A stretch of 64,000 bases of DNA from Psammoneis japonica (Eukaryota). The notes under the pieces are model-generated. The model had not been told where the DNA came from. It saw only the letters and a program-made list of their open reading frames with translations, and made no database searches. Of the stretch, positions 1 to 35,686 are shown piece by piece (the first letter of the stretch is position 1; each line of letters opens with the position of its first letter). Position numbers and translations under genes: made by a program. The stretch spans positions 62,001 to 126,000 of the forward strand of contig QPGO01000007.1 of NCBI GenBank assembly GCA_008632985.1, given 5' to 3'.

Positions 1-334
1 GCGCTGAGGCACTGCCAGCATCTGTCTGCACCCCGCAAGGCTGACCACAAAAAAGCGCGGGAAGCACACATCACAATTGCGTCATCGGTGGGTGCATTTT
101 CATCCCCGGGCACGCTGCCGCCACCCGCCCGTGCATCACGGAGATGCAGTCCGGCGCATGCTGTGGGCCCCATGACAGTGCTGCAGGGCCCTGCTGTGGG
201 TCCACCTGTGGCAGGTGGGGAGGAGGGGTTCACTTTTGCTCGCGATCGACTCGCGAGGCGTTGCATCGACAATGAGATTGAGGAACATTCACGGCAACAT
301 CATCTTGGCGACAACATGCTTTCTGCTGTTGATT

Positions 335-1231
335 TTAGTTGTCAAAATGATCCACATCAAATGGTGAGTGACCCATCATGAGGGCCAACTGTGTGATGTT
401 GGCCACGGCATGAAACACATGGCAATGTGTTTCCTTCGCGTGGCGGCATCTTTTGTTGAGCATTCCGAAACGCTTGAACCATCCATTGACAGCCTCATGC
501 CTTGCCCTTGCTGTTGTTTTCGTGGCCTCGTCTGCATTTCTTAGGCCGGATGGAGTCGAGCTGCACTGGCTCCCGTTGCTGCGGCCACCGTCGGCCAGAC
601 ACATCTCGCCGTCTTCAAGCTCTTCAATGATCCATTCATGAGCAATGTTCAGATCCGGCAACCCAGCTGGGTGCGGCCCATTGACCCAAACAATCCACCC
701 TGTCTGAATGCATGTTCCAATTTCATGCCGCAGCCCAGCACCGTGGAATTTGTGGGAGAACCACATTGGATCGAATGGTGATGGCTCGTAGATTCTGAAA
801 TCAGTGCCGTCGAGTGTCACCAAACATCTGCTGCCGTTGTCATCAATGAAGCGGTCTTCCCAGTGAATCTAAGAACAAGGTGTCAGTCCATTTGTTTCAC
901 ACACATGAGCAATGTCTGGAATGGTGCGCGCCAAATTCAACTGTCCAACAAGTTGAATTCTGACCCAAACCCATTTTCTCAGCGTGTCTTCATGGATTTT
1001 ATTACAGATGCCAGCAACGACTGTCTCAGATTCATGCAATTTGAGAAAGCAAAGGGTGTGGAGCAGGTGAATGGGCAAAAAACCTTGTGGCATTTTCCCG
1101 TCGTCAATGAGAAGCCCCCACAACTCAGATGCCACTTCTTCTGGGGTGCAGAAGCATGCTGCAGGTGACCCTTTTGGCTTCTGAATGATCGTCTGTGCCA
1201 AGCACTCTGTGGCCTCTTTGGGCAGTCTCAT
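335..1231 (-). pseudogene. PIF/Harbinger DDE transposase (DDE_Tnp_4-like), 2 exons (1231-932, 868-335), degraded by TpA mutation
   Basis: Motifs LDGTDFRI.EP..F...WFSHKF.G.GLR(H)EIG, WIVWVNGP, LADGG, RARHE.VNG.FKRF. The 63-nt intron 931-869 has a CTGAC branch site, a TTAG acceptor and a GC donor, and joins LNL|IHWEDR in frame. Confidence 0.85.
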
Positions 1232-2163
1232 GATTGGCAATTGGCAGTGTGCCACAGTGTGTCACTTTAGCGTTTGTGCCAGTCTCTACCACTGGCAGCT
1301 GCTCTCTGCTCTGCAGCAGCTGGCTGCTCTAGAGAGTGGCACAGCAGTTGTTTGACATTTGACAATTGTGTTTTGTCGTCTTCACGCAGTTGGGGTTCTC
1401 ATTAGAAGAGGCCTTTGGTGAGATTCCGTCGTGTTTGAAGAAAATACGAAAAAAATGCGATTCGGGTGTGGTTTCCGAATGGTGACTTTGGGACGTTCGC
1501 AATGGGCAACTTTGGGCGTCGTTTTGTCAACCGGAACACGGTAGAATGACCATTCCAACGCGTGCTCTTAGCTCAACTAACACAGCAGTTTACATGCAAC
1601 ATGTGACACAGAATTTTAAAACCACAATCCATGGTTGGTGGTGCATTAAAAAAGCATTCTCATTCTACAAATCGAAATGAAATCGCCTTTTCACAGACGA
1701 AAAGCGCACGGAAATGTGCCAATGAAAAGCCAAAATGAACATCAGGAGCTAGTTTGCCATCAGTGCCATCGCAAACACACACCAAAGCTTGGGATTCAGC
1801 CACTCATTCTTCAGTTGAGATGGTCCAAAGTCATCGTTCTGGAGCTGAAAATCGTTTTGGGTGTGATTTGGGAACAATTTTTGTGTGGTCTTGGAATGTT
1901 TTTCGTGTGGTCTTGAGGGAATCTTCGTTGTCAAGAGGCCCTTTCTCAATGTTGGCGGTTGGTGTTTTCTCAAATCTCATTTTGGCGGTTGGAATTTATT
2001 CAAATTTGAAAAGAGTGTCACGCGGATGGTGGTGAGGTAAGTTTGTCGTGACCCATTCAAAAATGGGGTTCTCATTGCTGCCCGTCAACGCGAACGCTGA
2101 TCTTGACGACTCTCGACTGTGCACCATCAATCCTCTCACAAAAAAGAGAAAACCAAAGAAGCC

Positions 2164-3348
2164 ATGCCCAAACTCAACCAACGAACCAAATCGGTTCTTG
2201 ACACTGAGGCTGCCGGCCCCCTTCGAGCAGTGTGGCGCAAGGGGTCCGCCGACTGCAAACTCTTGAAGGAGATGCTGATGGATGGCAGGGCAAGCGCTGG
2301 AGCGACGCCAAAAGAGATCCAGCAGATGCGCGCAGAGTTCATGCGCTGTCCACTGGACAAGTTCCGCACTGGCTTGCACAGGCTCAAAGACGAAACCGGG
2401 TTCAATCTTCGTCGAACGATGAACGACAGCAATGAGAACCCTGACGGTGAGTTTTGATTTTCACTGCATTCGCACATGCACGTGAAATAAATGTGAGTGA
2501 CGTCACTGTGTTGCCGATGCGTGCATTTTCATTTGACCACACCGCGCGGTGTTCTTTTTTTTCATCTGGCCACAGACACCGACGACGGCGACGAAGAGCT
2601 GTTCTCGGGTGGCCTTGACAGCACTCGTCGGACGGCATCAGCTCCAGCTCCTGCAAACAACAACGATGCAGCTGCTGTCATGAATGGAGCTGGTGTTGCT
2701 TCTGTGATGGAGGCACGTGGTGGTGGGCAAGGAGGTTCTTGGAAAAGCTTCAAGCCCATGGTTTTGCAAGCTGCTTGCAAGGACTCTGTCACCAAGACCA
2801 ATCATGTCGTGTTGGTTGTTGTGGCTCCATCTGGTGTTTGCACCACGGACCTTTCTGGCATCCAGCTGTCTGTTGTGAGCAATGGGTGGATGCTCAGTTG
2901 CGTTTTCCAGTGGCCACAGCACTCCATGGACATGGACGCTCTTCACGCAGTTCTCCTTGATGAAGCCACTGCCCAAGGGGGAAACCACGGTGGCGATGAT
3001 GAACTCCGTGACATCTACAAGCGCCTTGAAGCTCTTTCAGATGAGCTGTCTTCAATGAGGCAGTCTGACTCTGAGGTCCTGTCTTCCACAGCCCTCGTGC
3101 CCTTGCCAATCCAGGTCTCTAGGAAAATCAACAAGGTTCATTTGTTGGGTGGTCGCGATGGGTCCAGGATCATTTGTGTGGACCTCAAGTCGGAAGATTC
3201 GACATGCTGCGCTGTGGAGAATCCAAAAGTCAAGTTGATTGATGCCACAGGCGATGGTGTTGGACTCATTGGCTGCAATTGGGAGCTGGACGCCAGCGGA
3301 CAGGATGCACATGCATTTGACACAATGCACAGATTAGGACATTTGTGA
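2164..3348 (+). pseudogene. Probable Harbinger second ORF (accessory/DNA-binding protein), 2 exons with intron 2447-2575
   Basis: Divergent from the transposase and equally TpA-depleted. A GTGAGT...CACAG intron joins ...ENPD|DTDDGDEE in frame. Two-ORF organisation is typical of PIF/Harbinger elements. Confidence 0.55.
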
Positions 3349-3499
3349 TTGTCAGCAACTGATTGGCACAACAAAACATTCTTTCAACAACAGTCTCAGC
3401 ACAGCTGCCACTGTGGCAGCAGCAGGGCCTGCTCTAGCCAGCAGAGTAGACTGCAGTTTGACTCGGCGATGAACTCGGCAGTGCGAGCACAGCAGTGCT

Positions 3500-4289
3500 C
3501 ACGTCTTTGGCTTTTTAAACAGAAGATTAAGGGAGCCCATGTAGAGCGGAAGGGAACAGCAGAGGGAGGCACAGAGGTGGCTGTAGAGACGGCAGAGAAG
3601 AAGGGTCGAAGGACGCAAGACGAAGGGCGTTTTGAGGAAGGTGTGGGTGAGGAGGGAGCAGGGAGAGAGGAAGTGAATCAGAGGATGTGCGTAGAAAGGT
3701 GAAGAACGACGTTGCAGCCAAGAGTTTGGGTGGCCCACTGGGATGGGGTGGCTGTGCGGCAGGTGCTCCCAAAGCGATCGGCAGACAGGCGATGCCATGC
3801 GAAATCAGCAGAGGGAAGGATTGCAGACGGAGACGACAAAGCACAGAGGAAGGCGGAGCAGGAGGCATCGGAGTGACGAAAGTCAGAGGAAGAGGACCAG
3901 GGTGGCTTGGGCTGAGAGCAGACGGAGGAGGATGTAGAGCCAAAGAGCAAGCGGTGAGCAAAGTGGCCGAGACCACCAAGGTGATCTACAGTGAAGGGGA
4001 GCAGGAAGATGCCATTGTTGTCAAGCGAAGAAACAACAAGGGATCCATCGGCAGAGGAAGTGGAGGGGCCAAGAAACTTCAATCTCGCGCTCGAGTGGTG
4101 TGCCTCAGTTGAGGCAGGAGAAGAGGGGGCAGGCAGACCTGGAGGAGGGCGAGAGGAAGCTTGAGGGACGGCAACGTCCACTGCAATGTAGTGATGGTGG
4201 GAGGGAGCGGAAAGGGAGGCGGGAGGGGGAATTAAAATGCCGACATCGGCGGGACGGAGGAGCGGGCGGGTGGGGAGCAGGTTGGTGGG
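3500..4289 (-). mobile_element. CRE-like non-LTR retrotransposon, 3' fragment (restriction-like endonuclease domain and 3' UTR)
   Basis: Reads LRPADVGIL...IAVDVAV...LLPFTVDHLGGLG (RLE-type RPAD and DV motifs). Joins the 11395-11741 fragment across the GTGGG TSD (VHLEP|TNLLP). Confidence 0.75.
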
Positions 4290-4565
4290 TGATGGAAATT
4301 GAAGGCAAATGGCAAGAATTCAAACAACAACTCCTTGCTGCTGTCTAAATGGCAGATGAGTCTCCGCTCAGAGACCGTTGCAGGAGCCGAAAGACGTGCA
4401 AGTCGGTACAATCGGGCTACTGTTGTCATTCTTGTGAGCCTTGTGGCTCGAAAGCAAACTACATCGCGCGCGAACGCGCGGAACTAAAGCACACAAAACT
4501 GTGCGCGGTAAACTAAACAGCGCGCGACACTTCGCGCGCATCCAAATCCTGTTCAAATCCTGTCA
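4290..4565 (-). repeat. 3' LTR of copia copy 1
   Basis: 276-bp direct repeat present four times in the window. Confidence 0.95.
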
Positions 4566-7500
4566 CTCCCCAGTTTGCTTGAGGAGCCACAGAAACAGAT
4601 TCGACTTTGGATGGAATGAAGTTCCAGAACATGAGGGGGCGGAGAAGGTCCCAGATTTGGGAGTGACCCCAATGCTTGCTGAGAATGTCAGCAGGGTTGC
4701 GGGAGCCTTCGATGAAGTGGAACTCAAGGCAACCAGAGGCAATTGCCTCACGCACACGGTGGAACGACAGTGCGGTGTGTCGCTTGTGTAACTTGGAGTG
4801 CGGGATGGTGGCACTGTCTACAACCGACTTGTTGTCACCGAACATGCAACTAATGTTGCGGATCGGGACGCCAAGGTGGCGCAGGGTGATGCGCAGGTCG
4901 ATAATCTGCTCAACACAATTCCTTGCGGCAACAAATTCAGATCCGCAGGTTGCAGTCTCCACGGTGGCTTGTTTCTTGGAGAACCAATCAGCCGGGAATT
5001 TGTTGAGGAAGTGGAGCATTCCCATGACAGAGCGTCCGGTGAGCATGCAATGGCACAAGTTTGCATCGACGCAGTGGGTGGCAGTGACGAACTTGCCAAG
5101 GGGCGGTGGAGCGTCCTTCGGGATCATCTCTTCTGCTTCACCACACACGGAGTGCATCCATTCACAGGCCGGAGCAGGGAGATCCGAACAGTCGGGCTCT
5201 TCCGTGCGAACGCGGAGAGCACCGTGTCGCATCTTGGAGAGGCACCCACAGATGCGTTTGGCACGATCCAAGTGGCCTTGACGGGGCGCAGCTCGGAAGC
5301 TAGAGAGTGACATGACAGCCGTGGCAATGTCAATTCAACCGAGGGACACTGCCCATTGGAGTGAACCAACAAGAGACTGGAACTTGTGAATGCCATCGGG
5401 TCCCAGCAGTTCGGAAGTGTCCAGTTCGGGGTGGTCACCCTTCTCCAGAGGTGACAGGGCGTTGGTGGCAGGTTTCTCCCCAAACAGTCGGGCGCAGCTG
5501 TCGACCATGCGCTCGATGTACTTGCGCGGAGACAGGCACAAGGTTCCGTCGGGGTCGCGGGAAAAGTCGCAACCCAGATGGAACTCAATGGGTCCCGTGC
5601 CCTTGAGCTTGAACTTGTGCTTTTCCGTGAGAGTGTCGACGAAAGATTGAGGGTCCTTCATGGCAATGGCGAGGTCATCCACATAAACGGCAATGTGTTC
5701 ACAGTGGTCGCCATTCCTGCGCATCCAAATGTCGGGCTCGGCGCGGCAGGGGAAGAAGCCTTCAGCTCGCAGGCAGTCGGCGAAGCGCTCGTGCCAGCGG
5801 AGACCGGAGCTGCGCAGTCCATACAGTGCCTTGTGGATGACAAGGATGTGTCCTTCGAGTTTGCCAAATTCGGGTCCAGCTACAATGTAAAGCTTCTCCT
5901 TGGTGGTGGCCTCAAGGCAGGCATTGCCAATGTCGGTGGCCCATGTCTCCAGCTCGTTGAGTTCGGCCAGGAAAATCATCAGCCGAAGGCCACGGAGGGA
6001 GACTGCTCCGGAGCAGACACTGTCGACAGGTGCGTCCGTGAGGTGCCCGTCGGCTACGAGTCGTGCCTTGTGGCGACCGTCGTGTTTCACGTCGTGCGCC
6101 AGGTGCACTCGGATCTTCTTGTGTCCCGCAGGAGGAGTGGAAGACTTGAAGGGCCCGCAGTCATGGAAGACTTCGTATTCGTCGAGTTGGTCCATCTCGA
6201 GATTAGTTGCGTCTCCCCACTTGCGGTTGCCGTTGCGTTCGTCTAGTGACATGGCGTGTTTGTAGTTCCGGGGAACTTCGTATCCGTACTTGCAGCGAGG
6301 TGCAGTGCGGAAGGAGCGAAGCTTGGCTTGGTTGGCCATGCGAAATAGCTTCTTTTGGCGCCTCGCGATAGTGCGGAACCGCTTCCAGCCATCCGTGTCG
6401 AGGAGTCCGTTCTCTCGTGCACAGATGGCACAGGTGACGGGGTCGTCCTTGGCGATGATGGCAAGAGGCTCGGACGTGATCTCCCCACTTTCCCATTCAA
6501 GCATGATGTTGTAGCTTGAGCCTTTCCAGGTTGGGTCGTGAGGCTTCAGAGGTCCTTCGTGTGACACGATGCGTCGAAATTTCCAGACAGTGGTGTCTTC
6601 GTCGTCTTGCTCAATGTGATTCATGATGTCATTGTGGGCAAGGACTTCCTCGCATTCGTCATTGTTGACAGAGCAGACGAACTTAGTGAGCTCGGGATTG
6701 CCGTTCACTTTCCATTCATGGTCTTCGACGGCCTTGACGATGCGAGCTCTGTGGCGTTGTCCGTCCTCTTGTGGCTGCATGAGGAAGGTACGTCCAATGA
6801 TGTCTTGCGGATCGAAAACTGGCATCTTGGGTGTCCTGATCTCCCCATCAGGAGAATCGACGGGGTTGTCGTCATGGCGAGATTTGATGATGGGTTCAGG
6901 TGGCTCCCCATCAGGAGGATCAAGACGCAGGTTTCGAATGGCAGGATCGGGGTTAGCGGAGCGAACGTTGGACCGGCAGAGGATCTTTTGAGTCTCGTCA
7001 GATAGGATCTTGAAGGTCATCTGGTGGCCGACGTGCTCAGCAATGCCAACGAAGCGTCCACGCAACTCACGGGATTCGGACGGCCAATCGGAGTCATCGA
7101 GGTGGAAGCACACTGGTTCCCACCAGTGAAAGCGAAGCAATGGGCTGATGTCCGGGGTGGATCCAGTGAGAGTCTCGAGGGGCGTGCACCAGTGGAGACG
7201 TGGGGACGCTGTGTGGTTGAGCATGAAGCACACGCACATGAGCGCCAGCAGCCATGTGTGGGCGGGCGAACCAAAACGGTCCATGACAGTGTTCGCCATG
7301 CGCTTCACGGTCTGGTGTCGACGCTCGGCAAAGTTTTGGTGTTGCTGGTGAGGCTCACTTTGCCAGCTGGAGATGAAGAGGGCGCGTAGGATCCCGAGCA
7401 CTTTGTTGCTGATCTCAACTTGAGCACGGTCGCTAATGAGTTTGGATGGGGCACCACGTTCACGGATCTGATCCTCGAGTGTGTTGACAAACTCTTTGTC

Positions 7501-10176
7501 CGTCTCAGTGCCGTAGACGTCAGTGACGGTAGACTCGGTGCCAACAAACAGTTGGGCGCTGGTGCAACCAGAGTCGACGGCCGGGGTGTCGGCACAAACG
7601 GTGTCAGTGGCGACAGGCTCGTTGCGGCGGTGCACATTAAGGGCGGGGTTGGGTGATTTGCAGGCCTTGCGAAGGTGTGTGCCGGCGGGCATGCGGGCGC
7701 ACTGCGTGGTGCAGTCAAAAGTACGACGGACCGCATCGGCAGGTAGGAAGCCAAAGCAAGGCCGAAGAGACTCGAAGGGGGGGTCCTTGGGCTGTACAGT
7801 GCGCTCCGGAGGTGGAACGTCATCGCCCTTGGGGTCAATCGCATGCAGATGACACTCGTAGAACACGTCGTCGTTCGGAATGAGGTGATCATCGAGGGCG
7901 GACGCGTGATTGGCAGACAAGGAAGTGGACAAGATGGTCTCGTTGACAATGACACAGTGACGGCAGTTGCCGCATTCGTCAAATGGGTTGGCAGTGGGAT
8001 CGTCCTGCAGGTCAGAGATCGCGTCGCACCACTGGTCGTCGTCAGTGACAGAGTGATCGAGGACGGAAGGGTCCCATGTGTCATCACCGGTGAGGATGAC
8101 ATGGGGCAGGGTGTCCCATTCGACGTCAGTGCAAGGGCGCATGGCAACACAAGGCAGGCCAGCCTTGATGTCAATGGGGATGACACAGCCATCAGGAGTG
8201 GCAACACGTTGCAAGCCGTTGGGCACCTTGACAGAGCGATCGTTGACATCCTGTTTGTGCCATTCGAGCTGGCCGCAGGAATGGATGGTCTTGCCCTTGC
8301 CCGTGCATGCGTGCTGATGGAGGATGGCGATGACGGGACCATGCTGGGTCTCAATGACGGCACCAGCGGTGACAATGGGGATGTCCACCAATTGATGATC
8401 GTCAATGCCCTGAACGTCGACTTGGCGAGAGGTGCGTGCAATGACGCGAACGTCGTCGCCAGCAATGCCGCCGTTGGCCCCACGGTCGACTAGAGCGCCA
8501 GTGCGTGTGGAGCGATGAGCAGAGGCAGAGCAAATGACATTGTGGTTGTCAACGCGGCGGTGAGTGCGGCCGTTAAGTTCTGTGTCATCTGCAGAAGCTG
8601 GCGGGGTAGAGGAAGCGGCGGATGGCCCCGGTCGACTGGCATTGGGGGCTTGGTTAGGAGACAACAGACGTTGCAGATCACCGGGTGGCAGTGGCTTGCG
8701 CTTGGTGAGGTGCGCCTGGATGGGATTGTCCGAAGTGGCGTCCACATGTGGAGCGGAGTCACCACAGTCAGCGGGAGTCGTGTTGGACAAGTTGACATCA
8801 CCGTCACTCCCAAGGTGTTGGTCGTGAAGGTTGGCCGTAACAGACTCATGGCAGTTGCTGGCTCGCGGGTTGCGGGGAGGCGGACGAGAATGCTCAAGGA
8901 TGATCGCCTTGGAGGAATCGGGCAACGAATCCCAGAGCCGTTGGTGGTCGGGAGGGAGACGTCTCCATTGGACACCGGTGAGGCTGGGACCGCGGGTGTG
9001 GGCAGCATTGGCTTGAAGGACGTCAACGTCGCTGTCAATGTCGTAGAACACATCGTCGGACGGGTCCTGGACGTCGTGTGCGCATGTGGCGCGTCGGGGA
9101 GCTCGAGGTGTCGTCTTGGGTTGAAACGTGCTGTCGCACTGAGCTGCCGCGGAGAGGAGCAAGCCACAGCATTGATCGCATGTGAGGCTCTTGCCACTCT
9201 GCGTACGATGCTGATCAGCTTGGTTCTTGACAGCACGGAGTTCCTCGACAGGGTGCACGGCATTCTCGAGCATGACGCGCTTCTGTCCTTCAGAGAAGTG
9301 GTCGCTGGCGGGGATGAGTGCCTCACACTTGCGCAACTGATCTTGCCAATGAAGGATGAACCCGTGGGTCGGACCTTTCCAAGTGCCATCACCAAGACGT
9401 GCGGTGGTGAGGTGCGTGAGCAGGGTGGAGGACTCGACAGATGCGCGGGTGGAGGCAAGCGCGTGCTCAGACAAGGAGCGGCAGACGGTCTGTGCGTCAG
9501 AAGACCCCACATTTTCGTGAATGAGAGCCTTGCCCTTGTCGGTGAGAAGGATGCGTTCGAAGACGGCGAACATGTGCTTTTGCTGTTCAGCAAAGAGCAG
9601 TTTGTCTTCGGGGCTGGTCGGTTTGTACGACGAGTCTAGAATGCACTCGACGTCTTGGGCACGGGCTTGTGCCACAAGTGAGGTGTGCCAAGTGTGCCAC
9701 TGCTTGTCGGATTTGAGAGCCGTGAAAGCGGTGGGATCACGCTTGATGCCTCGCTTGAAGTCTCGCACCGGGTCGCGTGCCTTGGTCGGGTTGGTGACAT
9801 GTGGAGGTGCAAGGGGTGAGCTGCCGATGGACACAGAGGACATGCAGTCCGGGCTGAGGCGGCAGGCAAGGAACTCGTCATGCGTGAACAAAGAGGAGTC
9901 GTTGGCAACGTCAAGACCTTTGTGTGCTTTGACAATGTACAGACTGGCCAGTGCTGCTAACATGTTCTTACAACCACGAGGCAAAGGGATTGCATTGGTG
10001 CCGTTGTCGCACTCAAGCGAGTCGATTTGGGACGGCATGAACGTGAACAGTTCCTGATGCGAGTCCGTGCCGTCTTGGGCCAAAGCCAAACGAAGAGGAC
10101 TCCCAGCACCTTGGGCAAGCACGGTTCCAACAACGTGCTCGAAACCATCGATTTGTTGCTGACGAGTGAGAACCAT
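4513..10176 (-). pseudogene. Copia gag-pol polyprotein, copy 1; in-frame TGA at 5335-5337 (CGA in copy 2) and many Tyr->Cys/His changes
   Basis: LVDRGANGG protease, integrase core (SDRAQ...SEPHQQHQNFAE), RT (KARLVADG, DIGNA, LYGLRSSG, YVDD), RNase H (DNKSV, NPADILSK). Confidence 0.93.
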
Positions 10177-11118
10177 GGTGGACAAAAGTGGTGTCAGGAC
10201 AATCAATTCTGGTTGGAAAGCGAAGGTGGACTCGAAACTTGGGTGACAATAGACTTGACTTGAAATGGACTTGACTTGAAATCTTGAACTGATCTTAAAA
10301 TCAGAAGTCGCCGGGCTTTGTTGCCCCGTTTGTTGTCAAGTGCTAAACTTCCCATCCGGTCCGTAGAGTTGTGCCGGCACGTCCGAACCCGCAGCTGGCG
10401 GCGCTTTGGGTTGCTTGCGAGCGGAGCAGCGGGTTGCAAACCCCTGCAGGCAAGCTGACCAGAGGTGGACAAGACCCCCGAACCGTTCTCATTTTATGTC
10501 GGTTGGATTTCCCGATCAGGCTGGCCAGTTGACGCAGGCGTTGGGCGCTGTGGACGAACGAACAAACGCGGGAAAGCACCCTCGCCCCAACGCAGGCTGT
10601 GATCATGGCTGCTTGCTCTCACAGTCATCCTCGTGGACCCAGCAGAACTGTGGAGCACCAGTGGACCGGGGTAGATCAGGTACAATGGACTCGGTGTGCT
10701 TGTAGAGTGGCAGCAAAACCGCAGTCCGAAGAGTGGGTACAGGTTCTTGGCCGTGAAGATGTGCACATATATGTGTGTGTCTTCAGCGACGAAGATCCTT
10801 GAATATGCAGGGTTCTTGACCGTTAACCGATGAACAGGTATATCAAGGGATGAGGATCAAGGATAGACTTGGATATGACCGTTGAATGTATGTCTTCAGC
10901 GATCAAAGGCAGTATAATCAATCCAGATATCCAGCGGTAAGGAGACTTGACGGTGACGTTAACTTCCTGCCGATGCCCTGGTATTGAATGCGCGTAGACT
11001 TGCCGATGTATGTAGAACATATACGGAGGTCCACGTAGAATTGAAATAGCGTCGTTGGTAAATCAACGACGACGATGGCGGTTGCTCAATGGGTTGACAA
11101 TGAGCAAGACTGTTAATC

Positions 11119-11394
11119 TGATAGAAATTGAAGGCAAATGGCAAGAATTCAAACAACAACTCCTTACTGCTGTCTAAACAGCAGATGAGTCTCCGCTCAG
11201 AGACCGTTGCAGGAGCCGAAAGACGTGCAAGTCGGTGCAATCGGGCTGCTGTTGTTGTTCTTGTGAGCCTTGTGGCTCGAAAGCAAACTACATCGCGCGC
11301 GAACGCGTGGAACTAAAGCACACAAAACTGTGCGCGGTAAACTAAACAGCGCGCGACACTTCGCGCGCATCCAAATCCTGTTCAAATCCTGTCA
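11119..11394 (-). repeat. 5' LTR of copia copy 1
   Basis: 276-bp direct repeat, TG...CA ends. Confidence 0.95.
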
Positions 11395-11741
11395 GTGGGT
11401 TCGAGATGAACGTCATCAGGGGATCGACAGAACTCTGCAAGAGGACCCAAAGTTTGGGCTAGGATGAAAACAGTGTCACGGAGACCATTGGAGAGCTTGG
11501 ACTTGTGAGCACGGTGGCAAGAAAAGGCATGATCACCACAGGCATCCAGGATGGCATGGCCACAGGGACAGGGAGTGTTGACAAGGGACGGAGGAAGGAT
11601 GGGGAGACGAAGCTTGTGAAGGGCGGCAATGACGCAGGCGTCCGAAGAAAGGCGGGAGCTTGGGAAGCGATGGGAGAAGGAATGAAGAGGGAGGCTTGCA
11701 AGCGGAGACAGCAATGAAGGGAGCGAAGATTGCACGTCGCA
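11395..11741 (-). mobile_element. CRE-like non-LTR retrotransposon, middle fragment (CCHC zinc knuckle)
   Basis: HKLRLPIL...CPCG..ILDACGDHAFSC. Reading frame is continuous with both neighbouring fragments once the copia copies are removed. Confidence 0.75.
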
Positions 11742-12017
11742 TGATGGAAATTGAAGGCAAATGGCAAGAATTCAAACAACAACTCCTCACTGCTGTCTAA
11801 ACAGCAGATGAGTCTCCGCTCAGAGACCGTTGCAGGAGCCGAAAGACGTGCAAGTCGGCACAATCGGGCTGCTGTCATTGTTCTTGTGAGCCTTGTGGCT
11901 CGAAAGCAAACTGCATCGCGCGCGAACGCGCGGAACCAAAGCACACAAAACTGTGCGCGGCAAACTAAACAGCGCGCGATGCTTCGCGCACATCCAAATC
12001 CTGTTCAAATCCTGTCA
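11742..12017 (-). repeat. 3' LTR of copia copy 2
   Basis: 276-bp direct repeat; the most TpA-eroded of the four. Confidence 0.95.
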
Positions 12018-15000
12018 CTCCCCAGTTTGCTTGAGGAGCCACAGAAACAGATTCGACTTTGGATGGAATGAAGTTCCAGAACATGAGGGGGCGGAGAAGG
12101 TCCCAGATTTGGGAGCAACCCCAATGCTTGCTGAGAATGTCAGCAGGGTTGCGGGAGCCTTCGATGAAGTGGAACTCAAGGCAACCAGAGGCAATTGCCT
12201 CACGCACACGGTGGAACGACAGTGCGGTGTGTCGCTTGTGCAACTTGGAGTGCGGGATGGTGGCACTGTCTACAACCGACTTGTTGTCACCGAACATGTG
12301 ACTGACGTTGCGGATCGGGACGCCAAGGTGGCGCAGGGTGATGCGCAGGTCGACAATCTGCTCAACACAATTCCTTGCGGCAACAAATTCAGATCCGCAG
12401 GTTGCAGTCTCCATGGTGGCTTGTTTCTTGGAGAACCAATCAGCCGGGAATTTGTTGAGGAAGTGGAGCATTCCCATGACAGAGCGTCCGGTGAGCATGC
12501 AATGGTGCAAGTTTGCATCGACGTAGTGGGTGGCAGTGACGAACTTGCCAAGGGGCGGTGGAGCGTCCTTCGGGATCATCTCTTCTGCTTCACCATGCAC
12601 GGAGTGCATCCATTCATGGGCTGGAGCAGGGAGATCCGAATGGTCGGGCTCTTCCGTGCGAACGCGGAGAGCACCGTGTCACATCTTGGAGAGGCACCCA
12701 CAGATGCGTTTGGCACGATCCAAGTGGCCTTGACGGGGCGCAGCTCGGAAGCCAGAGAGTGACATGACAGCCGTGGTGATGTCAATTCGACCAGGGACAC
12801 TGCCCATTGGAGTGAACCAACAAGAGACTGGAACTTGTGAATGCCATCGGGTCCCAGCAGTTCGGAAGTGTCCAGTTCGGGGTGGTCACCCTTCTCCAGA
12901 GGTGACAGGGCGTTGGTGGCAGGTTTCTCCCCAAACAGTCGGGCGCAGCTGTCGACCATGCGCTCGATGTACTTGCGCGGAGACAGGCACAAGGTTCCGT
13001 CGGGGTCCGGGAAAAGTCGCAACCCAGATGGAACTCAATGGGTCCCGTGCCCTTGAGCTTGAACTTGTGCTTTTCCATGAGAGTGTCGACGAAAGATTGA
13101 GGGTCCTTCATGGCAATGGCGAGGTCATCCACATAAACGGCAATGCATTCACAGTGGTCGCCGTTCCTGCGCATCCAAATGTCGGGCTCGGCGCGGCAGG
13201 GGAAGAAGCCTTCAGCTCACAGGCAGTCGGCGAAGCGCTCGTGCCAGCGGAGACCGGAGCTGTGCAGTCCACACAGTGCCTTGTGGATGACAAGGATGTG
13301 TCCTTCGAGTTTGCCAAATTCGGGTCCAGCTACAATGTAAAGCTTCTCCTTGGTGGTGGCCTCAAGGCAGGCATTGCCAATGTCGGTGGCCCATGTCTCC
13401 AGCTCGTTGAGTTCGGCCAGGAAAATCATCAGCCGAAGGCCACGGAGGGAGACTGCTCCGGAGTAGACACTGTCGACAGGTGCGTCCGTGAGGTGCCCGT
13501 CGGCTACGAGTCGTGCCTTGTGGCGACCGTCGTGTTTCACGTCGCACACCAGGTGCACTCGGATCTTCTTGTGTCCCGCAGGAGGAGTGGAAGACTTGAA
13601 GGGCCCGCAGTCATGGAAGACTTCGTATTCGTCGAGTTGGTCCATCTCGAGATTAGTTGCGTCTCCCCACTTGCGGTTGCCGTTGCGTTCGTCTAGTGAC
13701 ATGGCGTGTTTGTAGTTCCGGGGAACTTCGCATCCGCACTTGCAGCGAGGTGCAGTGCGGAAGGAGCGAAGCTTGGCTTGGTTGGCCATGCGAAATAGCT
13801 TCTTTTGGCGCCTCGCGACAGTGCGGAACCGCTTCCAGCCATCCGTGTCGAGGAGTCCGTTCTCTCGTGCATAGATGGCACAGGTGATGGGGTCGTCCTT
13901 GGCGATGATGGCAAGAGGCTCGGACGTGATCTCCCCACTTTCCCATTCAAGCATGATGTTGTAGCTTGAGCCTTTCCAGGTTGGGTCGTGAGGCTTCAGA
14001 GGTCCTTCGTGTGACACGATGCGTCGAAATTTCCAGACAGTGGTGTCTTCGTCGTCTTGCTCAATGTGATTCATGATGTCATTGCAGGCAAGGACTTCCT
14101 CGTATTCGTCATTGTTGACAGAGCAGACGAACTTAGTGAGCTCGGGATTGCCGTTCACTTTCCATTCATGGTCTTCGACGGCCTTGACGATGCGAGCTCT
14201 GTGGCGTTGTCCGTCCTCTTGTGGCTGCATGAGGAAGGTGCGTCCAATGATGTCTTGCGGATCGAAAACTGGCATCTTGGGTGTCCTGATCTCCCCATCA
14301 GGAGAATCGACGGGGTTGTCGTCATGGCGAGATTTGATGATGGGTTCAGGTGGCTCCCCATCAGGAGGATCAAGACGCAGGTTTCGAACGGCAGGATCGG
14401 GGTTAGCGGAGCGAACGTTGGACCGGCAGAGGATCTTTTGAGTCTCGTCAGATGGGATCTTGAAGGTCATCTGGTGGCCGACGTGCTCAGCAATGCCAAC
14501 GAAGCGTCCACGCAACTCACGGGATTCGGACGGCCAATCGGAGTCATCGAGGTGGAAGCACACTGGTTCCCACCAGTGAAAGCGAAGCAATGGGCTGATG
14601 TCCGGGGTGGATCCAGTGAGAGTCTCGAGGGGCGTGCGCCAGTGGAGACGTGGGGACGCTGTGTGGTTGAGCATGAAGCACACGCACATGAGCGCCAGCA
14701 GCCATGTGTGGGCGGGCGAACCAAAACGGTCCATGACAGTGTTCGCCATGCGCTTCACGGTCTGGTGTCGACGCTCGGCAAAGTTTTGGTGTTGCTGGTG
14801 AGGCTCACTTTGCCAGCTGGAGATGAAGAGGGCGCGAGGATCCCGAGCACTTTGTTGCTGATCTCAACTTGAGCACGGTCGCTAATGAGTTTGGATGGGG
14901 CACCACGTTCACGGATCTGATCCTCGAGTGTGTTGACAAACTCTTTGTCCGTCTCAGTGCCGCAGACGTCAGTGACGGTAGACTCGGTGCCAACAAACAG

Positions 15001-17625
15001 TTGGGCGCTGGTGCAACCAGAGTCGACGGCCGGGGTGTCGGCATGAACGGTGTCAGTGGCGATGGGCTCGTTGCGGCGGTGCACATTAAGGGCGGGGTTG
15101 GGTGATTTGTGGGCCTTGCGAAGGTGTGCACCGGCGGGCATGCGGGCGCACTGCGTGGTGCAGTCAAAAGTGCGACGGACCGCATCGGCAGGCAGGAAGC
15201 CGAAGCAAGGCCGAAGAGACTCGAAGGGGGGGTCCTTGGGCTGTACAGTGCGCTCCGGAGGTGGAACGTCATCGCCCTGGGGGCCAATCGCATGCAGATG
15301 ACACTCGTAGAACACGTCGTCATTCGGAATGAGGTGATCATCGAGGGCGGACGCGTGATCAGCAGACAAGGAAGCGGACAAGATGGTCTCGTTGACAACG
15401 ACACGGTGACGGCAGTTGCCGCATTCGTCAAACAGGTTGGCAGTGGGATCGTCCTGCAGGTCAGAGATCGCGTCGTGCCACTGGTCGTCGTCAGTGACAG
15501 AGTGATCGAGGACGGAAGGGTCCCATGTGTCATCACCGGTGAGGATGACATGGGGCAGGGTGTCCCATTCGACGTCAGTGCAAGGGCGCATGGCAACATG
15601 AGGCAGGCCAGCCTTGATGTCAATGGGGATGACACAGCCATCAGGAGTGGCAATGCGTTGCAAGCCGTTGGGCACCTTGACAGAGCGATCGTTGACATCC
15701 TGTTTGTGCCATTCGAGCTGGCCGCAGGAGTGGATGGTCTTGCCCTTGCCCGTGCACGTGTGCTGATGGAGGATGGCGATGACGGGACCACGCTGGGTCT
15801 CAATGATGGCACCAGCGGTGACAATGGGGATGTCCACCAATTGATGATTGTCAATGCCCTGAACGTCGACTTGGCAAGAGGTGCGTGCAATGACGCGAAC
15901 ATCGTCGCCAGCAATGCCGCCGTTGGCCCCACGGTCGACTAGAGCGCCAGTGCGTGTGGAGCGATGAGCAGAGGCAGAGCAAATGACATTGTGGTTGTTG
16001 ACGCGGCGGCAAGTGCGGCCGTTAAGTTCCATGTCATCTGCAGAAGCTGGCAGGGTAGAGGAAGCGGCGGATGGCCCCGGTCGACTGGCATTGGGGGCTT
16101 GGCCAGGAGACAACAGACGTTGCAGATCACCGGGTGGCAGTGGCTTGCGCTTGGTGAGGTGCGCCAGGATGGGATTGTCCGAAGTGGCGTCCACATGTGG
16201 AGCAGAGTCACCACAGTCAGCGGGAGTCGTGTTGGACAAGTTGACATCACCGTCACTCCCAAGGTGTTGGTCGTGAAGGTTGGCCGCAACAGACTCATGC
16301 CAGTTGCTGGCTCGCGGGTTGCGGGGAGGCGGACGAGAATGCTCAAGGATGATCGCCTTGGAGGAATCGGGCAACGAATCCCAGAGCCGTTGGTGGTCGG
16401 GAGGGAGACGTCTCCATTGGACACCGGTGAGGCTGGGACCGCGGGTGCAGGCAGCATTGGCTTGAAGGACGTCAACGTCGCTGTCAATGTCGTAGAACAC
16501 ATCGTCGGACAGGTCCTGGACGTCGTGTGCGCATGTGGCGCGTCGGGGAGCTCGAGGTGTCGTCTTGGGTTGAAACGTGCTGTCGCACTGAGCTGCCGCG
16601 GAGAGGAGCAAGCCACAGCATTGATCGCATGTGAGGCTCTTGCCACTCTGCGTGCGATGCTGATCAGCTTGGTTCTTGACAGCACGGAGTTCCTCGACAG
16701 GGTGCACGGCATTCTTGAGCATGACGCGCTTCTGTCCTTCAGAGAAGTGGTCGCTGGCGGGGATGAGTGCCTCGCACTTGCGCAACTGATCTTGCCAATG
16801 AAGGATGAACCCGTGGGTCGGACCTTTCCAAGTGCCATCACCAAGACGTGCGGTGGTGAGGTGCGTGAGCAGGGTGGAGGACTCGACAGATGCGCGGGTG
16901 GAGGCAAGCGCGCACTCAGACAAGGAGCGGCAGACGGTCTGTGCGTCAGAAGACCCCACATTTTCACGAATGAGAGCCTTGCCCTTGTCGGTGAGAAGGA
17001 TGCGTTCGAAGACGGCGAACATGTGCTTTTGCTGTTCAGCAAAGAGCAGTTTGTCTTCGGGGCTGGTCGGTTTGTACGACGAGTCTAGAATGCACTCGAC
17101 GTCTTGGGCACGGGCTTGTGCCACAAGTGAGGTGTGCCAAGTGTGCTGCTGCTTGTCAGATTTGAGAGCCGTGAAAGCGGTGGGATCACGCTTGATGCCT
17201 CGCTTGAAGTCTCGCACCGGGTCGCGTGCCTTGGTCGGGTTGGTGACATGTGGAGGTGCAAGGGGTGAGCTGCCGATGGACACAGAGGACATGTGGTCCG
17301 GGCTGAGGCGGCAGGCAAGGAACTCGTCATGCGTGAACAAAGAGGAGTCGTTGGCAACGTCAAGACCTTTGTGTGCTTTGACAATGTACAGACCAGCTGG
17401 TGCTGCCAACATGTTCTTACAACCACGAGGCAAAGGGATTGCATCAGTGCCGTTGTCGTGCTCAAGCGAGTCGATTTGGGACGGTGTGAACGTGAACAGT
17501 TCCTGACACGAGTCCATGCCGTCTTGGGCCAAAGCCAAACGAAGAGGACTCCCAGCACCTTGGGCAAGCACGGTTCCAACAACGTGCTCGAAACCATTGA
17601 TTTGTTGCTGACGAGTGAGAACCAT
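11965..17625 (-). pseudogene. Copia gag-pol polyprotein, copy 2; 1-bp deletions (~14836, ~13007, ~12792), nonsense codons and Tyr->Cys/His changes
   Basis: Same domains as copy 1, split over ORFs 14755-17655, 13217-14758, 12782-13174, 12576-13022 and 11965-12609. Confidence 0.9.
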
Positions 17626-18567
17626 GGCAGACAAAAGTGGTGTCAGGACAATCAATTCTGGTTGGAAAGCGAAGGTAGACTCGAAACTTGGGTGACAACA
17701 GACTTGACTTGAAATGGACTTGACTTGAAATCTTGAACTGTCTTGAAATCAGAAGTCGCCGGGCTTTGTCACCCCGTTCGTTGTTGAGTGCTAAACTTCC
17801 TGTCCGGTCCGTAGAGTTGTGCCGGCACGTCCGAACCCGCAGCTGGCGGCGCTTTGGGTTGCTCACGAGCGGAGCAGCGGGTTGTAAACCCCTGCAGGTA
17901 AGCTGACCCAGAGGTGGACAAGACCCCCGAGCCGTTCTCATTTTATGTCGGTTGGATTTCCCGATCAGGCTGGCCAGTTGACGCAGGCGTTGGGCGCTGT
18001 GGACGAACGAACAAACGCGGGAAAGCACCCTCGCCCCAACGCAGGCTGCAATCACGGCTGCTTGCTCTCACAGTCATCCTCGTGGACCTGGCAGAACTGT
18101 GGAGCACCAGCAGACCGGGGTAGATCAGGTGCAATGGACTCGGTGTGCTTGCAGAGTGGCAGCAAAACCGCAGTCCGAAGAGTGGGTGCAGGTTCTTGGC
18201 CGTGAAGATGTGCGCATGTGTGCACATGTCTTCAGCGACGAAGATCCTTGAATGTGCAGGGTTCTTGACCGTTGGCCGATGAACGGGTGTGTCAAGGGAT
18301 GAGGATCAAGGACAGACTTGGATGTGACCGTTGAATGCATGTCTTCAGCGATCAAAGGTGGTGTGATCAATCCAGATGTCCAGCGGTAAGGAGACTTGAC
18401 GGTGACGTTAACTTCCTGCCGATGCCCTGGCCATTGAATGCGCGTAGACTTGCCGATGTATGTAGAACATATACGGAGGTCCACGTAGAATTGAAACAGC
18501 GTCGTTGGTAAATCAACGACGACGATGGCGGTTGCTCAATGGGTTGACAATGAGCAAGACTGTAATC

Positions 18568-18843
18568 TGACAGAAATTGAAGGCAAATGGCAAGAATTCA
18601 AACAATAACTCCTTACTGCTGTCTAAATAGCAGATGAGTCTCCGCTCAGAGACCGTTACAGGAGCCGAAAGACGTGTAAGTCGGTATAATCGGGCTACTG
18701 TTATTATTCTTGTGAGCCTTGTGGCTCGAAAGCAAACTACATCGCGCGCGAACGCGCGGAACTAAAGCACACAAAACTGTGCGCGGTAAACTAAACAGCG
18801 CGCGATACTTCGCGCGCATCCAAATCCTGTTCAAATCCTGTCA
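18568..18843 (-). repeat. 5' LTR of copia copy 2
   Basis: 276-bp direct repeat; retains 16 of the 17 TpA sites seen across the four LTRs. Confidence 0.95.
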
Positions 18844-19065
18844 TCGTAAGATGAGTTGGCAAGGATGGAGGTTGCTGCTTGCTGCTGATGTTCATGGCAG
18901 AGGCGACGAGTCAGGCCAGGAAGAGTGGCCGATTTAACCAGGGCAGCCAAGGAAGAAGAGGAAAGGGTAGAGGCGGAAGCCAGAACGGGAGCATAACGGC
19001 GGAAGAGCGTATAGAGTCGTAGGGAAGAGCGAGGGTTGGACCAGGAAGATGGGGAGAGCCGAAAT
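18844..19065 (-). mobile_element. CRE-like non-LTR retrotransposon, 5'-most (truncated) fragment
   Basis: ...AATSILANSSY|DVQSSLPSLLSP reads through the TCGTA TSD into the middle fragment. No RT domain is present. The 5' boundary is approximate. Confidence 0.65.
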
Positions 19066-19526
19066 TTCGCTGTTGCACGTACGACGTACGTGCGGCATGC
19101 TGGCAGTCGTCGTAATCGTCTGCTCTCATTCTCTGGTAGGTACAGTACAGTACGGCCGCCCGGTACATACAGTGGGTTTCTGTAGGGCCCTACTCTCTCC
19201 ACTACTACGGTAGCTAGCCAGCTATCTGCGGCGCGGGCTGGTGCCTTTTGTATGGAAAAAACGCGTGGAACCATGCGGAGACGTTTTTTCCTGCAACTCC
19301 CTGTGGATTGAGCTGTCTTATCCCGGTTCAGGTCTCATCAGAAAGAGTGCACTATCAAACATTATGTGTACCGTAGATCTCTATGTATGGAAACACGATA
19401 TCTACAGTAAGAAAATTCGCAAAATTATAAAGGACCGATCGATAGCCCGCTGAGCCAAGAATTCTAGAGGGCATCAATACAAGTCTCACTGATACAAACT
19501 CGATCTTGTCTCTAGCACCATAGTCC

Positions 19527-28966: not shown

Positions 28967-30224
28967 GGTGTGAATGGACTATGAAACGTCTTTGACAGTC
29001 GGCTTCCCTTGGCCATTGGTCTCTCGTTTCGCGTTCGTTTTGTGTCTTCAAGTTTTGCCGATTGATTTTGGCGAACACGATGACGTCTGTTCGTAGGATC
29101 CTCGTAGAATAGACACAGATATTATCGTACATTTATGGATAAGTATAAAAAAGTAGTGGGTGCGTGGCGTGGAGCGCGCACTCGGAGTGTCACCTCATCT
29201 GTCTGTCGGTCATTCCTCCGAAAAGGTGGTAGGTACCATAGGAGTACGTTTTATTTTGGGACCACCTGCCTCGCTCTGGTCCGCTCTAGTAGCTAGTTAG
29301 TGGCGCCGTACTCAGCCTCAAGATTGCTTGTTCTTCTCCAGCCAAAACGTTTTTCTGATTGAAGACTCGATGACCCTCCTCATCGATGGCTTCAAAAACG
29401 GTCGAGTCAATCCGCTCACAGTGTTCGCGGATTTGCTGATTGAATGATGTTGGCTTTTGTCAGTTTTTGATTGAGCCTCTCTTTAAAGAGGGCACCCCAG
29501 AAAAGCAAACCAGTGGAAACTAGTGATAAAATGCGCCACCCTGGCCATGACGAGTTCTCCTGGACAAAGGAAAGTAACGAAGCAACCATGGTCCACAAGA
29601 CATGCTTGTCAAGTCCCACGTGAGCCGCGAGAAAGCAGCAGAATTTCCAACTGCAATGGCCGCAAAAAATAAGCCCCGATCCTTTAAATCATGACTAATT
29701 ACAATCATACCAACAATCAGAACCATTGAACACAACGCCAGCCCGGTGCTCTGTCCTGTGATTCCCTTTCGCCTCAGTGTCATCCCAAAAGCACTCAATT
29801 GAACAACTGCGAGTGCAGCAAGCTGAACACTCATATGGTTGGATAATAAAAGACAATTTGTATTGGCATGAAACTGTGTCGAAGACATGAGATAAAGCAG
29901 TTGCGGTGGTCCTTTCAGATCTCGTATTGTCCGGCTTGATTCACCTCTTCTTTTAAAGTGCGCTGTCACAGTGTCAGCGGCAAGCATTGTTGCAAGGACC
30001 ACAGTATATGCTGGCAAAGGTGACCATAACAAGAAAGAAATAGATTTTGCTTTATTGCCTTGAGGCACAATGGGGTGGCGTTTTCGAAGCCACGCCAAGA
30101 GCAGAAGCAGGTGGCATCTCCCACAAAAGACAAGCGCGTGAAATCGATGCTCATTCCATGTTCGACTTCCGTCGGGGTGCCTTTTCTTTGGAAGCTGAAA
30201 GAACAATCCGGTGAGTTGTAGTAG

Positions 30225-30515
30225 TGCCGAATGTCACGGTCATCTATATTCATTCGTGTGTTCATTCGTGGGTGTCAACCTGGTGTCAAAAGTGTCAAAA
30301 GGATGTCAACGATGACACTTTCTAGAAACCTCTTCTCCTTTCTCGATGCATCTCGATGCCTCTCGAAAGATTGTTTCTTTACATTTCTACGCGGTTTCTT
30401 AGCATTAATTCTACGAGATTTCGGAGTAGCCGAATCTCTTTCATTTCTTCTCACAATGTTGGCAACAGTCAACTTTACAACGCTACTTTATACTATTACT
30501 TGGCGCCACTTGGCA
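30225..30515 (+). repeat. Gypsy 5' LTR
   Basis: Direct repeat of 34834-35124 with 8 substitutions. Confidence 0.95.
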
Positions 30516-30588
30516 TAGTAAATTTACTCCCAAACACTTGTTCATCTCTCTTGAGACACATCTACCGATCATGTTGTCCTGACCAGAC

Positions 30589-34812: not shown

Positions 34813-34833
34813 CGTCTCAATTGGGGAAGCGAG

Positions 34834-35124
34834 TGCCGAATATCACGGTCATCTATATTCATTCGTATATTCATTCGTGGGTGTCAACCTGGTGTCAAAA
34901 GTGTCAAAAGGATGTCAACGATGACACTTTCTAGAAACCTCTTCTCCTTTCTCGATACATCTCGATGCCTCTCGAAAGATTGTTTCTTTATATTTCTACG
35001 CGGTTTCTTAGTATTAATTCTACGAGATTTCGGAGTAGCCGAATCTCTTTCATTTCTTCTCACAATATTAGCAACAGTCAACTTTACAACGCTACTTTAT
35101 ACTATTACTTGGCGCCACTTGGCA
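34834..35124 (+). repeat. Gypsy 3' LTR
   Basis: Direct repeat of 30225-30515. Confidence 0.95.
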
Positions 35125-35686
35125 AGTAGTATATGCGGGGCAAACAGAGCAACACTCTTTGCCGATTCATCAAAGCACATATCCTTAGATGCATCGACAC
35201 CAAAGAACTCGTAGTACCGGTACAAAAAGTGACACAACACAAACGCTCCGAGCAGCGCATGGACTCTGTGAAACCACCATTCTTTGTTGGACGGTAATTT
35301 ACTGGACGAGGTTATCAAAGCTCGGGGCATTCTGCATCCAGGACGAAAACAACACCATGGCGATCAATCGCAGGAAAAGTTCAATAAAAGATCGGCGGAG
35401 CGAGGTGCTGAAAGTTTGATCTTCACGAACCAATGTTTTATAGTTTATCTTTATGGTGTTGCATCTTATTGTAAGGTTATTACTCTGAATATTACAAAAT
35501 ATTCGCATACTCTAGAGAGAGGAACTTTCATACAATAAATTCCAATCGCGCGTCTCGCCCCAAATCAAAAATGGTGAAGTCAACGGCGTACCGGTACTTC
35601 GACTCCTCTAAAGGCTCTCTTCGTACATGAGATAATCCCGAGAACAACGCGCCATACATAAGCAAGGGGAAAAACTTGGGGAGAAA

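Follow-up and report, generated by a model that had tools for sequence, protein, structure and literature searches.

TpA-restricted A:T to G:C hypermutation of integrated retrotransposons in the diatom Psammoneis japonica

We analysed one 64-kb stretch of DNA from the diatom Psammoneis japonica (GenBank assembly GCA_008632985.1, contig QPGO01000007.1, positions 62,001 to 126,000 of the forward strand), here called the window and numbered from its first letter. Two full-length Ty1/copia elements, designated copia A and copia B, lie in tandem within it, 347 bp apart, and both have been hypermutated in chromosomal DNA after their integration. The change is an A:T to G:C transition restricted to the dinucleotide TpA. 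It falls on both strands equally and site by site, is self-limiting, and is bounded in domains.

Differences among copies, their direction and their timing

The two elements together supply four long terminal repeats (LTRs) of 276 bp each, which begin at 4290, 11119, 11742 and 18568 (LTR1 to LTR4), just where an earlier reading of the bare sequence, hereafter the original prediction, had placed them. Our recount reproduces exactly its TpA numbers of 7, 7, 2 and 16, and alignment recovers the 17 variable sites that it had described: 15 with TA, TG or CA and two at CpG (CpG/TpG or CpG/CpA). Seven sites show both the TG and the CA outcome among different LTRs, again as predicted. The four-LTR alignment contains no difference of any other kind. 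LTR1 differs from LTR2 at 9 bases and LTR3 from LTR4 at 17, every one of them within the 17 variable sites; CpG counts are 22, 21, 21 and 22 for LTR1 to LTR4. TpA sites span about 34 of the 276 bases of an LTR yet account for 15 of the 17 variable sites, a pattern of difference that is not due to chance.

Alignment of copia A with copia B over 7107 columns gives 204 differences, of which 201 are transitions and 196 are switches among TA, TG, CA and CG. Both copies have TA at 49 sites, whereas TA is opposed to TG or CA at 59, TG is opposed to CA at 48, and CG is opposed to TG or CA at 41; TA stands opposite CG at 0 sites. Since TA has never been converted to CG in this comparison, TG and CA are dead ends, as expected if a 5′ T is required. 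Outside pyrimidine-purine steps there are just 8 differences in the roughly 7100 columns, which implies that the rate at TpA exceeds that at other bases by orders of magnitude. Changes of the AA to AG type number at most 4 between the copies.

Copy-to-copy comparison alone cannot separate the path from TA to TG or CA from the path that runs from CG through TG or CA to TA; judged from sequence, it is the encoded proteins that settle the direction. The copia A polyprotein contains 0.90% Tyr, 3.06% Cys and 4.68% His, compared with 3.87%, 0.95% and 3.48% in 120 pooled homologs; among single homologs Tyr goes down to 3.03% and no further. At 415 columns conserved in 45 homologs, copia A deviates with 35 residues; 12 of these are Tyr to Cys/His, and 0 are the reverse. 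The closest intact homolog has 71 Tyr, of which copia A retains 12 (31 are now Cys, 12 His and 5 Phe) and copia B retains 13 (29 Cys, 15 His, 5 Phe). Against these 43–44 Tyr to Cys/His changes per copy, changes from Cys or His to Tyr relative to the same homolog number 0 in both copias. Among 79 related copia loci from metagenomes, the next-lowest Tyr retention is 0.50, and the 16 loci listed carry 0–2 Tyr to Cys and 0–3 Tyr to His changes each. In a single-copy host gene taken as a control, encoding diphthine-ammonia ligase (DPH6), 16 of 18 conserved Tyr are kept, the other 2 are Phe, and 0 have become Cys or His. Because TAY codons have turned into TGY or CAY, TpA was ancestral and the change was A:T to G:C, so that the direction originally proposed is borne out by polarisation against protein homologs. 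GC content is 0.56–0.59 in the copias versus 0.45–0.50 in 20001–64000.

The LTRs of one element are copied from a single template and are identical at insertion. Sites that now differ within a pair number 7 in copia A, 16 in copia B and 8 in a Ty3-type (gypsy) element further along the window, and one copy of the copia B target-site duplication itself carries a TA to CA change (TCGTA to TCGCA). Diverged LTR pairs and a mutated target-site duplicate together imply change in chromosomal DNA after integration, and this part of the original prediction is upheld as well. The three LTR pairs contain 32 events at about 106 TpA site-copies, 2 events at about 118 CpG site-copies and 0 events at any other base among the remaining LTR positions, where the denominators are our own tally and the number of TpA at insertion is inferred. 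Within these LTRs, change at TpA has thus run about 20 times as fast as change at CpG. At six LTR sites, the two LTRs of copia A carry the same mutation.

Outcomes show the strand symmetry that had been proposed, with TG to CA ratios of 30:35 in copia A and 44:46 in copia B. A runs test for processive single-strand action was negative (32 runs versus 33.3 expected in copia A, and 45 versus 46.0 in copia B), and this absence of runs sets the process apart from processive single-strand deaminases, which leave strand-coordinated tracts. For the 40 Tyr codons mutated in both copias, 26 outcomes agree and 14 disagree, with 57% agreement expected from the Cys:His ratio (p=0.2); whether a site becomes TG or CA is independent between the two copies. 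With regard to sequence context, T-A-Y is hit at the A at a frequency of 0.29–0.35, versus 0.17–0.19 for T-A-R (p=0.002), and RTAY sites are mutated at 0.57 versus 0.34 for YTAR (p=0.02). The base that precedes the T of TpA has no effect on the hit rate in the copia comparison.

Layout of the window, domain edges and spared sequences

Both elements (Table 1) have LTRs with TG..CA ends and a 5-bp target-site duplication. The copia A polyprotein is encoded by a read-through open reading frame (ORF) of 1666 codons on the minus strand (5335–10335; RVT_2 domain, Pfam E=5.6e-26), and its homologs are 57–70% identical. This minus-strand frame makes LTR2 and LTR4 the 5′ LTRs, a correction to the original prediction. 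Each element has its own target-site duplication; the two are thus distinct insertions and not a segmental duplicate. The order of integrase before reverse transcriptase was judged by eye from the translation; a Pfam scan of the copia frame gave no match to an integrase family. The copia A frame ends at 5335, about 250 residues short of the homologs, which go on into the RNase H region, and the coding region of copia B is split into frames of 997 and 548 codons. AT-rich leaders beside the copia 5′ LTRs (10701–11300 and 18150–18560) have lost much less of their TpA than the coding part has; columns 6500–7000 of the alignment contain 12 TpA sites kept in both copias, 22 kept in one, and 1 that is discordant.

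Independent sequence data consist of Logan contigs of four runs (X1–X4), all from one study. Genome-wide copy number can be read from them only as summed contig depth. In run X1 the summed word depth over 4290–18843 is about 28,000–118,000, compared with about 35–100 for single listed X1 contigs, which makes the copia family one of very high copy number. One X1 contig (depth 203, shorter side 26 letters) joins 11736 to 18844, with copia B absent; either the copia B insertion is polymorphic, or the flank itself is repeated.

Table 1. Features of the 64-kb window (o/e, observed/expected; TSD, target-site duplication)
Feature	Position	Strand	Remarks
Left flank, older TpA-depleted sequence, family unassigned	1..4289		TpA o/e 0.15; CpG o/e 0.67 (partly CpG-depleted)
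TSD of copia A	4285-4289 and 11395-11399		GTGGG, identical on both sides
Copia element A	4290..11394	-	TpA o/e 0.27; RVT_2 frame; TSD GTGGG
LTR1, 3′ LTR of copia A	4290-4565	-	7 TpA
LTR2, 5′ LTR of copia A	11119-11394	-	7 TpA
Inter-copia spacer	11395..11741		347 bp; TpA-poor, continuous with left flank; TpA o/e 0.07-0.27 in 11301-12200
TSD of copia B	11737-11741 and 18844-18848		TCGCA and TCGTA, respectively
Copia element B	11742..18843	-	TpA o/e 0.20
LTR3, 3′ LTR of copia B	11742-12017	-	2 TpA left
LTR4, 5′ LTR of copia B	18568-18843	-	16 TpA left
Right edge of depleted domain, inside copia B	18300..18600		TpA o/e from 0.07 (18001-18300) to 0.88 (18601-18900), within about 600 bp
UCH hydrolase	20950-22236	-	
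GT10 fucosyltransferases (two)	22870-25041 and 40720-43281	+	
Na/Ca exchanger	27590-28978	-	
Gypsy (Ty3-type) element, partly mutated	30223..35134	+	LTRs 30223-30523 and 34832-35134; ORF 30583-34812
BRK-domain ORF	36945-37793	-	
Formin, in two frames	43704-47184	-	
Diphthine-ammonia ligase (DPH6)	48597-51110	-	
End-state repeat	58601..64000		5.4 kb; 12 TpA (o/e 0.03), 27 CpG (o/e 0.09); sharp edge at about 58350-58600

In the original prediction the process acts on transposon DNA and leaves neighbouring host genes ordinary, and within the window we likewise find it restricted to transposons and repeats. TpA o/e is 0.03–0.27 in transposons and repeats, compared with 0.54 in 19000–64000, and the o/e of TG plus CA reaches 1.36–1.40 in the copias and 1.89 in 58601–64000. 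The gypsy element, flanked on both sides by the target-site duplication AGTAG, is partly mutated in its coding region: 35 conserved Tyr columns are occupied by 23 Tyr, 6 Cys, 3 His, 1 Arg and 2 Phe. All of its LTR differences (8/8) are at TpA, with TG or CA in the 5′ LTR where the 3′ LTR has TA. In codon 1339 of its ORF (34597–34599), a conserved Tyr is now CGC (Arg), the sole candidate in the window for a double change from TA to CG.

Two further depleted regions lie at the ends of the window. Run X1 shows that the left flank is itself a repeat (summed depth of 6251 over 3501–4034), and a six-frame Pfam scan of 1–4289 found no domain. A stretch translated from the minus strand at about 1–1500 looks by eye like the core of a DDE (Harbinger/PIF-like) transposase, a tentative resemblance that had no Pfam match. 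In 58601–64000, pyrimidine-purine steps are almost solely TG and CA. This region is weakly similar to 56600–57482, and a six-frame Pfam scan of 57501–64000 returned no family. The copias, the gypsy element, the left flank and 58601–64000 look like successive stages of one decay, in which TpA is lost quickly and CpG is lost later and more slowly.

What directs the process to these sequences is suggested by LTRs that have been spared. LTR4 has lost 1 of its 17 TpA versus 15 of 17 in LTR3, and the gypsy 3′ LTR has lost 0 versus 8 in the gypsy 5′ LTR; in both elements the spared LTR is the right-hand one. The process had originally been called repeat-targeted. In the sense in which this is true of fungal repeat-induced point mutation (RIP), the description is unsupported, since each spared LTR is no less repeated than its partner, which makes homology or copy number a poor fit as the basis of targeting. 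Targeting looks better explained by position or chromatin domain.

The host genes in 19000–58500 are ordinary eukaryotic genes, and all have ordinary TpA content. Their Tyr content is ordinary as well, in keeping with the original prediction (UCH, 4.4%; GT10 genes, 2.5–3.6%; DPH6, 3.2%). Named relatives of DPH6, at 44–52% identity, come from Nitzschia (two), Cylindrotheca (two), Seminavis and Mayamaea, and on this gene the host groups with raphid pennate diatoms. Beyond DPH6, at 51810–52910, there is a tandem array of units of about 84 bp (83–96% identity) that is open in four frames, has a TpA o/e near 0.9, and matched no family in a Pfam scan.

Favoured mechanism and alternative explanations

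How does such a pattern arise? The transition is very fast. Each event changes TA either to TG or to CA, according to the strand on which the A (or T) was struck, and TG and CA are no longer substrates, so that the process halts there. Loss of TpA, combined with slower decay of CpG to TpG or CpA, drives repeats towards a state of TG and CA only, within sharp-edged domains that spare adjoining genes. The coding capacity of transposons is destroyed through Tyr to Cys/His replacements, without new stop codons. As for the chemistry, adenine in 5′-T-A-3′ may be enzymatically deaminated to hypoxanthine, which would be read as G at the next replication, by a deaminase recruited to silenced chromatin and with R-T-A-Y as its wider favoured context. 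For the tRNA A34 deaminases (TadA/ADAT2), the target A is preceded by U33, a property that would explain the strict requirement for a 5′ T. The authors of a preprint on the chlorarachniophyte alga Bigelowiella natans, to which we return below, arrive at the same guess of an adenine deaminase (bioRxiv 10.64898/2026.01.13.699255). We regard the phenomenon itself as very likely. The adenine-deaminase step, which we infer, is more tentative and falls somewhat short of probable. The full statement, TpA-restricted A:T to G:C hypermutation after integration by way of adenine deamination, we judge to be slightly on the probable side. A function in defence, and the identity of the responsible enzyme, are conjecture.

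Several observations weigh against this explanation. The sites that have been hit, and those that have not, coincide strongly in the two copies (odds ratio 40): 9 Tyr codons are kept in both copias, 3 plus 3 are kept in one, and 40 are lost in both. This shared status implies that some TpA sites are refractory, and sequence context accounts for only part of it. Parsimony over the four LTRs separates the directions only moderately, with 34 events when A:T to G:C alone is allowed, 40 when G:C to A:T alone is allowed, and 28 when both are; four LTR sites have TA in LTR4 alone and are cheaper as G:C to A:T changes in that LTR. Of the 79 metagenome copia loci (median TpA o/e 0.73), none is comparably depleted, the minimum TpA o/e being 0.35, so there is no obvious sign that the process is widespread in diatoms, unless assembled metagenome contigs are biased towards young copies. 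The run contigs all come from a single study, and an error common to runs and assembly is therefore possible. The deaminase itself is hypothetical. The metagenome locus with the lowest TpA o/e, 0.35 overall and 0.20 in one 1-kb window, is a low-coverage, frameshifted contig.

The main rival to adenine deamination is modification of thymine. A modified thymine at TpA in silenced DNA (for example, 5-hydroxymethyluracil or 5-formyluracil made by a TET/JBP-type dioxygenase) would mispair with G and yield T to C, and the mutations would then arise incidentally from an epigenetic mark, in the way that CpG decay arises from 5-methylcytosine (5mC). Given that TpA is palindromic, T to C on one strand is indistinguishable from A to G on the other, and CpG decay does coexist in the same domains. 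In dinoflagellates, 5-hydroxymethyluracil occurs preferentially at TpA and TpC, and 5-formyluracil causes T to C mutations. We nevertheless consider this rival rather unlikely: a literature search at the level of abstracts yielded no diatom in which such a base has been reported, a rate about 20 times that of CpG decay within LTR pairs is high for a passive by-product, and the bursts described for B. natans lines suggest an induced activity. It is also possible to suppose that editing precedes integration, with the RNA of the retrotransposon (A to I, ADAR/ADAT-type) or its cDNA being edited and the edits inherited by new copies. The A that follows U is indeed the usual preference of RNA adenosine deaminases, as noted in the B. 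natans preprint (bioRxiv 10.64898/2026.01.13.699255), and the six identical LTR sites in copia A may include changes that predate insertion. But edits of this kind should leave matching LTR pairs at insertion, yet the three pairs differ; the two strands carry the changes in equal measure; the changes extend to flanking DNA and to a target-site duplicate; and outcomes in copia A and copia B are independent. We therefore hold pre-integration editing to be very improbable. Error-prone repair in heterochromatin (a polymerase eta-type WA motif) and GC-biased gene conversion among copies would both produce A:T to G:C changes, and repeats and methylated DNA do attract repair. Polymerase eta has only a modest preference for TA over AA, whereas T is favoured over A at position -1 to an extreme degree here, with about 155 visible TpA events versus at most 4 of the AA to AG type; errors of this polymerase type are rejected on that ground. 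Gene conversion lacks a dinucleotide context and cannot drive two copies apart to TG versus CA, and we reject it for both reasons. As a pair, these two processes are even less credible than editing before integration. Selection against TpA is likewise rejected, as LTR pairs diverge after insertion.

There remain an artefact and a reversal of direction. An artefact of base-calling or polishing had been raised in the original prediction itself. A modified base at transposon TpA might lead a long-read basecaller, or polishing, to write TG or CA where the DNA is TA. The platform is not on record for the assembly or for runs X1–X4, and 59% of sampled 31-mers of 10001–20000 are present in X1, which leaves some room for an artefact that we otherwise find quite improbable. 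A systematic error should recur in the same context, yet copia A and copia B are opposite (TG versus CA) at 48 sites, with flanks identical over ±5 bases at 37 of them and over ±10 bases at 30. Contigs of the four runs show TA, TG and CA among copies in both directions; at 16 of 40 X1 variant places (the best 40 of 428), other copies have TA where the window has TG or CA, or the reverse. Changes from window to X1 contig comprise 91 A to G and 82 T to C (173) versus 101 G to A and 75 C to T (176), and not the one-way G to A and C to T that would be expected were the DNA TA. The X2–X4 contigs, 430–485 bases in length, are only 3–4 letters off the window. Moreover, domain edges are sharp and LTR4, whose sequence context is that of the other LTRs, is almost untouched, and an identical signature was obtained with Illumina data in B. 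natans, according to the preprint's account. The reverse direction, a RIP-like or 5mC-driven C to T change from CG through TG or CA to TA, is the least credible of all and is refuted as the main signal by protein polarisation. Part of the evidence does point that way. CpG to TpG or CpA does occur, as seen in the 41 sites with CG opposite TG or CA between the two copias; conserved Arg has become His or stop in copia B, the usual direction for CpG; CG predominates in other genomic copies at 10 of the 40 listed X1 places, all 10 with CA or TG in the window; and four LTR sites, mentioned above, are cheaper in this direction in LTR4. From these sequences, methyl-CpG-type decay (CpG to TpG or CpA, with CpG depletion) is apparently a minor component. 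As the main process, C to T change is at odds with Tyr codons that are only lost (0 Cys/His to Tyr), with TpA that is depleted and not enriched, with raised GC, and with long frames that stay open in many frames. It would also require seven LTR sites to have once been CpG, with CG kept in no copy.

Relation to known systems and significance

The original prediction knew of no description of such a system, which is outdated. Mettrop et al. (bioRxiv 10.64898/2026.01.13.699255) report TpA-only A:T to G:C hypermutation of integrated viral DNA in B. natans. According to the main text of the preprint, 231 of 302 new mutations in mutation-accumulation lines fell in two integrated viral regions, and 230 of these 231 were A to G or T to C, in every case at a TpA; the rate came to about 6e-7 for each site and generation, about 1000 times background, in some lines only; and reverse transcriptase and DDE domains were over-represented among coding sequences low in TpA (bioRxiv 10.64898/2026.01.13.699255). 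That main text makes no mention of diatoms, stramenopiles, LTRs or retrotransposons. Our literature searches found no report of TpA hypermutation in diatoms, and a term search of the text of Maumus 2009 (PMC2806351) and Krasovec 2019 (PMC6604790) did not turn up the signature.

The likeness, as far as the preprint describes the B. natans process, is close. In both hosts TpA changes to TpG or CpA only, and does so strand-symmetrically; only foreign or selfish DNA is affected, at a rate orders of magnitude over background, with TpA depletion and a gain of CpA plus TpG. Activity limited to some lines parallels the patchy LTRs of the diatom, whose unequal loads (15 versus 1, and 8 versus 0) are only suggestive of bursts. 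There are also differences. The host of Mettrop et al. is a rhizarian and ours a stramenopile; the targets there are single-copy inserts of giant viruses and virophages, whereas here they are high-copy LTR retrotransposons and unclassified repeats. Mutation accumulated in real time there, whereas our evidence is historical, drawn from LTR pairs, target-site duplications and protein polarisation. In the diatom, loss approaches saturation, with about 83% of Tyr codons gone, and its end state is sequence free of both TpA and CpG. The R-T-A-Y preference and the spared end LTRs have no counterpart in the Results and Discussion of the preprint. The diatom case is of the same kind as the 2026 B. natans process, in a new lineage and on new targets, and is not wholly novel; what it adds is evidence for action after integration, saturation, context preference and positional boundaries.

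Better-known systems resemble the diatom process in part. RIP in Neurospora and other fungi is also a dinucleotide-specific transition hypermutation of genomic transposon DNA that ruins coding capacity, and both can leave sharp compositional domains. RIP, however, makes TpA from CpA, whereas the diatom process destroys TpA; the latter creates no stop codons, raises GC instead of lowering it, leaves no strand-coordinated tracts, and does not simply track repetitiveness, as the sparing of LTR4 illustrates. RIP depends on the sexual cycle and on a RID-type homolog of cytosine methyltransferases. Methyl-CpG decay shares with the diatom process a palindromic pyrimidine-purine step, the same TG and CA products and the same domains, but it hits C and not A or T, and within LTR pairs it is some 20-fold slower. 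The editing of animal retroelements by ADAR and APOBEC likewise consists of deaminase-type transitions with a neighbour-base preference; these enzymes edit RNA or cDNA before integration, strand-specifically, and leave both LTRs alike, whereas the diatom changes are post-integration and strand-symmetric.

A TpA-specific mutator of selfish DNA was thus known once before, in 2026, from a rhizarian alga and without a mechanism. The diatom footprint places it in a second major lineage of SAR (stramenopiles, alveolates and Rhizaria), and widens its target range from viral inserts to ordinary transposons, namely LTR retrotransposons mutated nearly to saturation. The evidence here is also cleaner, in that LTR pairs and target-site duplications establish the timing and protein polarisation fixes the direction. 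Such a process distorts the dating of insertions by LTR divergence, leaves long false open reading frames in dead elements, and alters local GC content. Comparing the genes common to both hosts would narrow the search for the enzyme. A natural TpA-specific editor of DNA adenine, if real, would be of interest to base-editing research and, were it a double-strand DNA adenine deaminase, would have no precedent among eukaryotes.

Finally, it is conceivable, and we offer this as less than probable, that diatoms and chlorarachniophytes share an active, chromatin-targeted genome defence, in which an enzyme edits the A (or T) of double-stranded TpA in silenced foreign DNA. If so, this system would be a mirror image of fungal RIP, erasing Tyr codons without creating stops, limiting itself and, jointly with CpG decay, bringing transposons to a ground state of TG and CA only.

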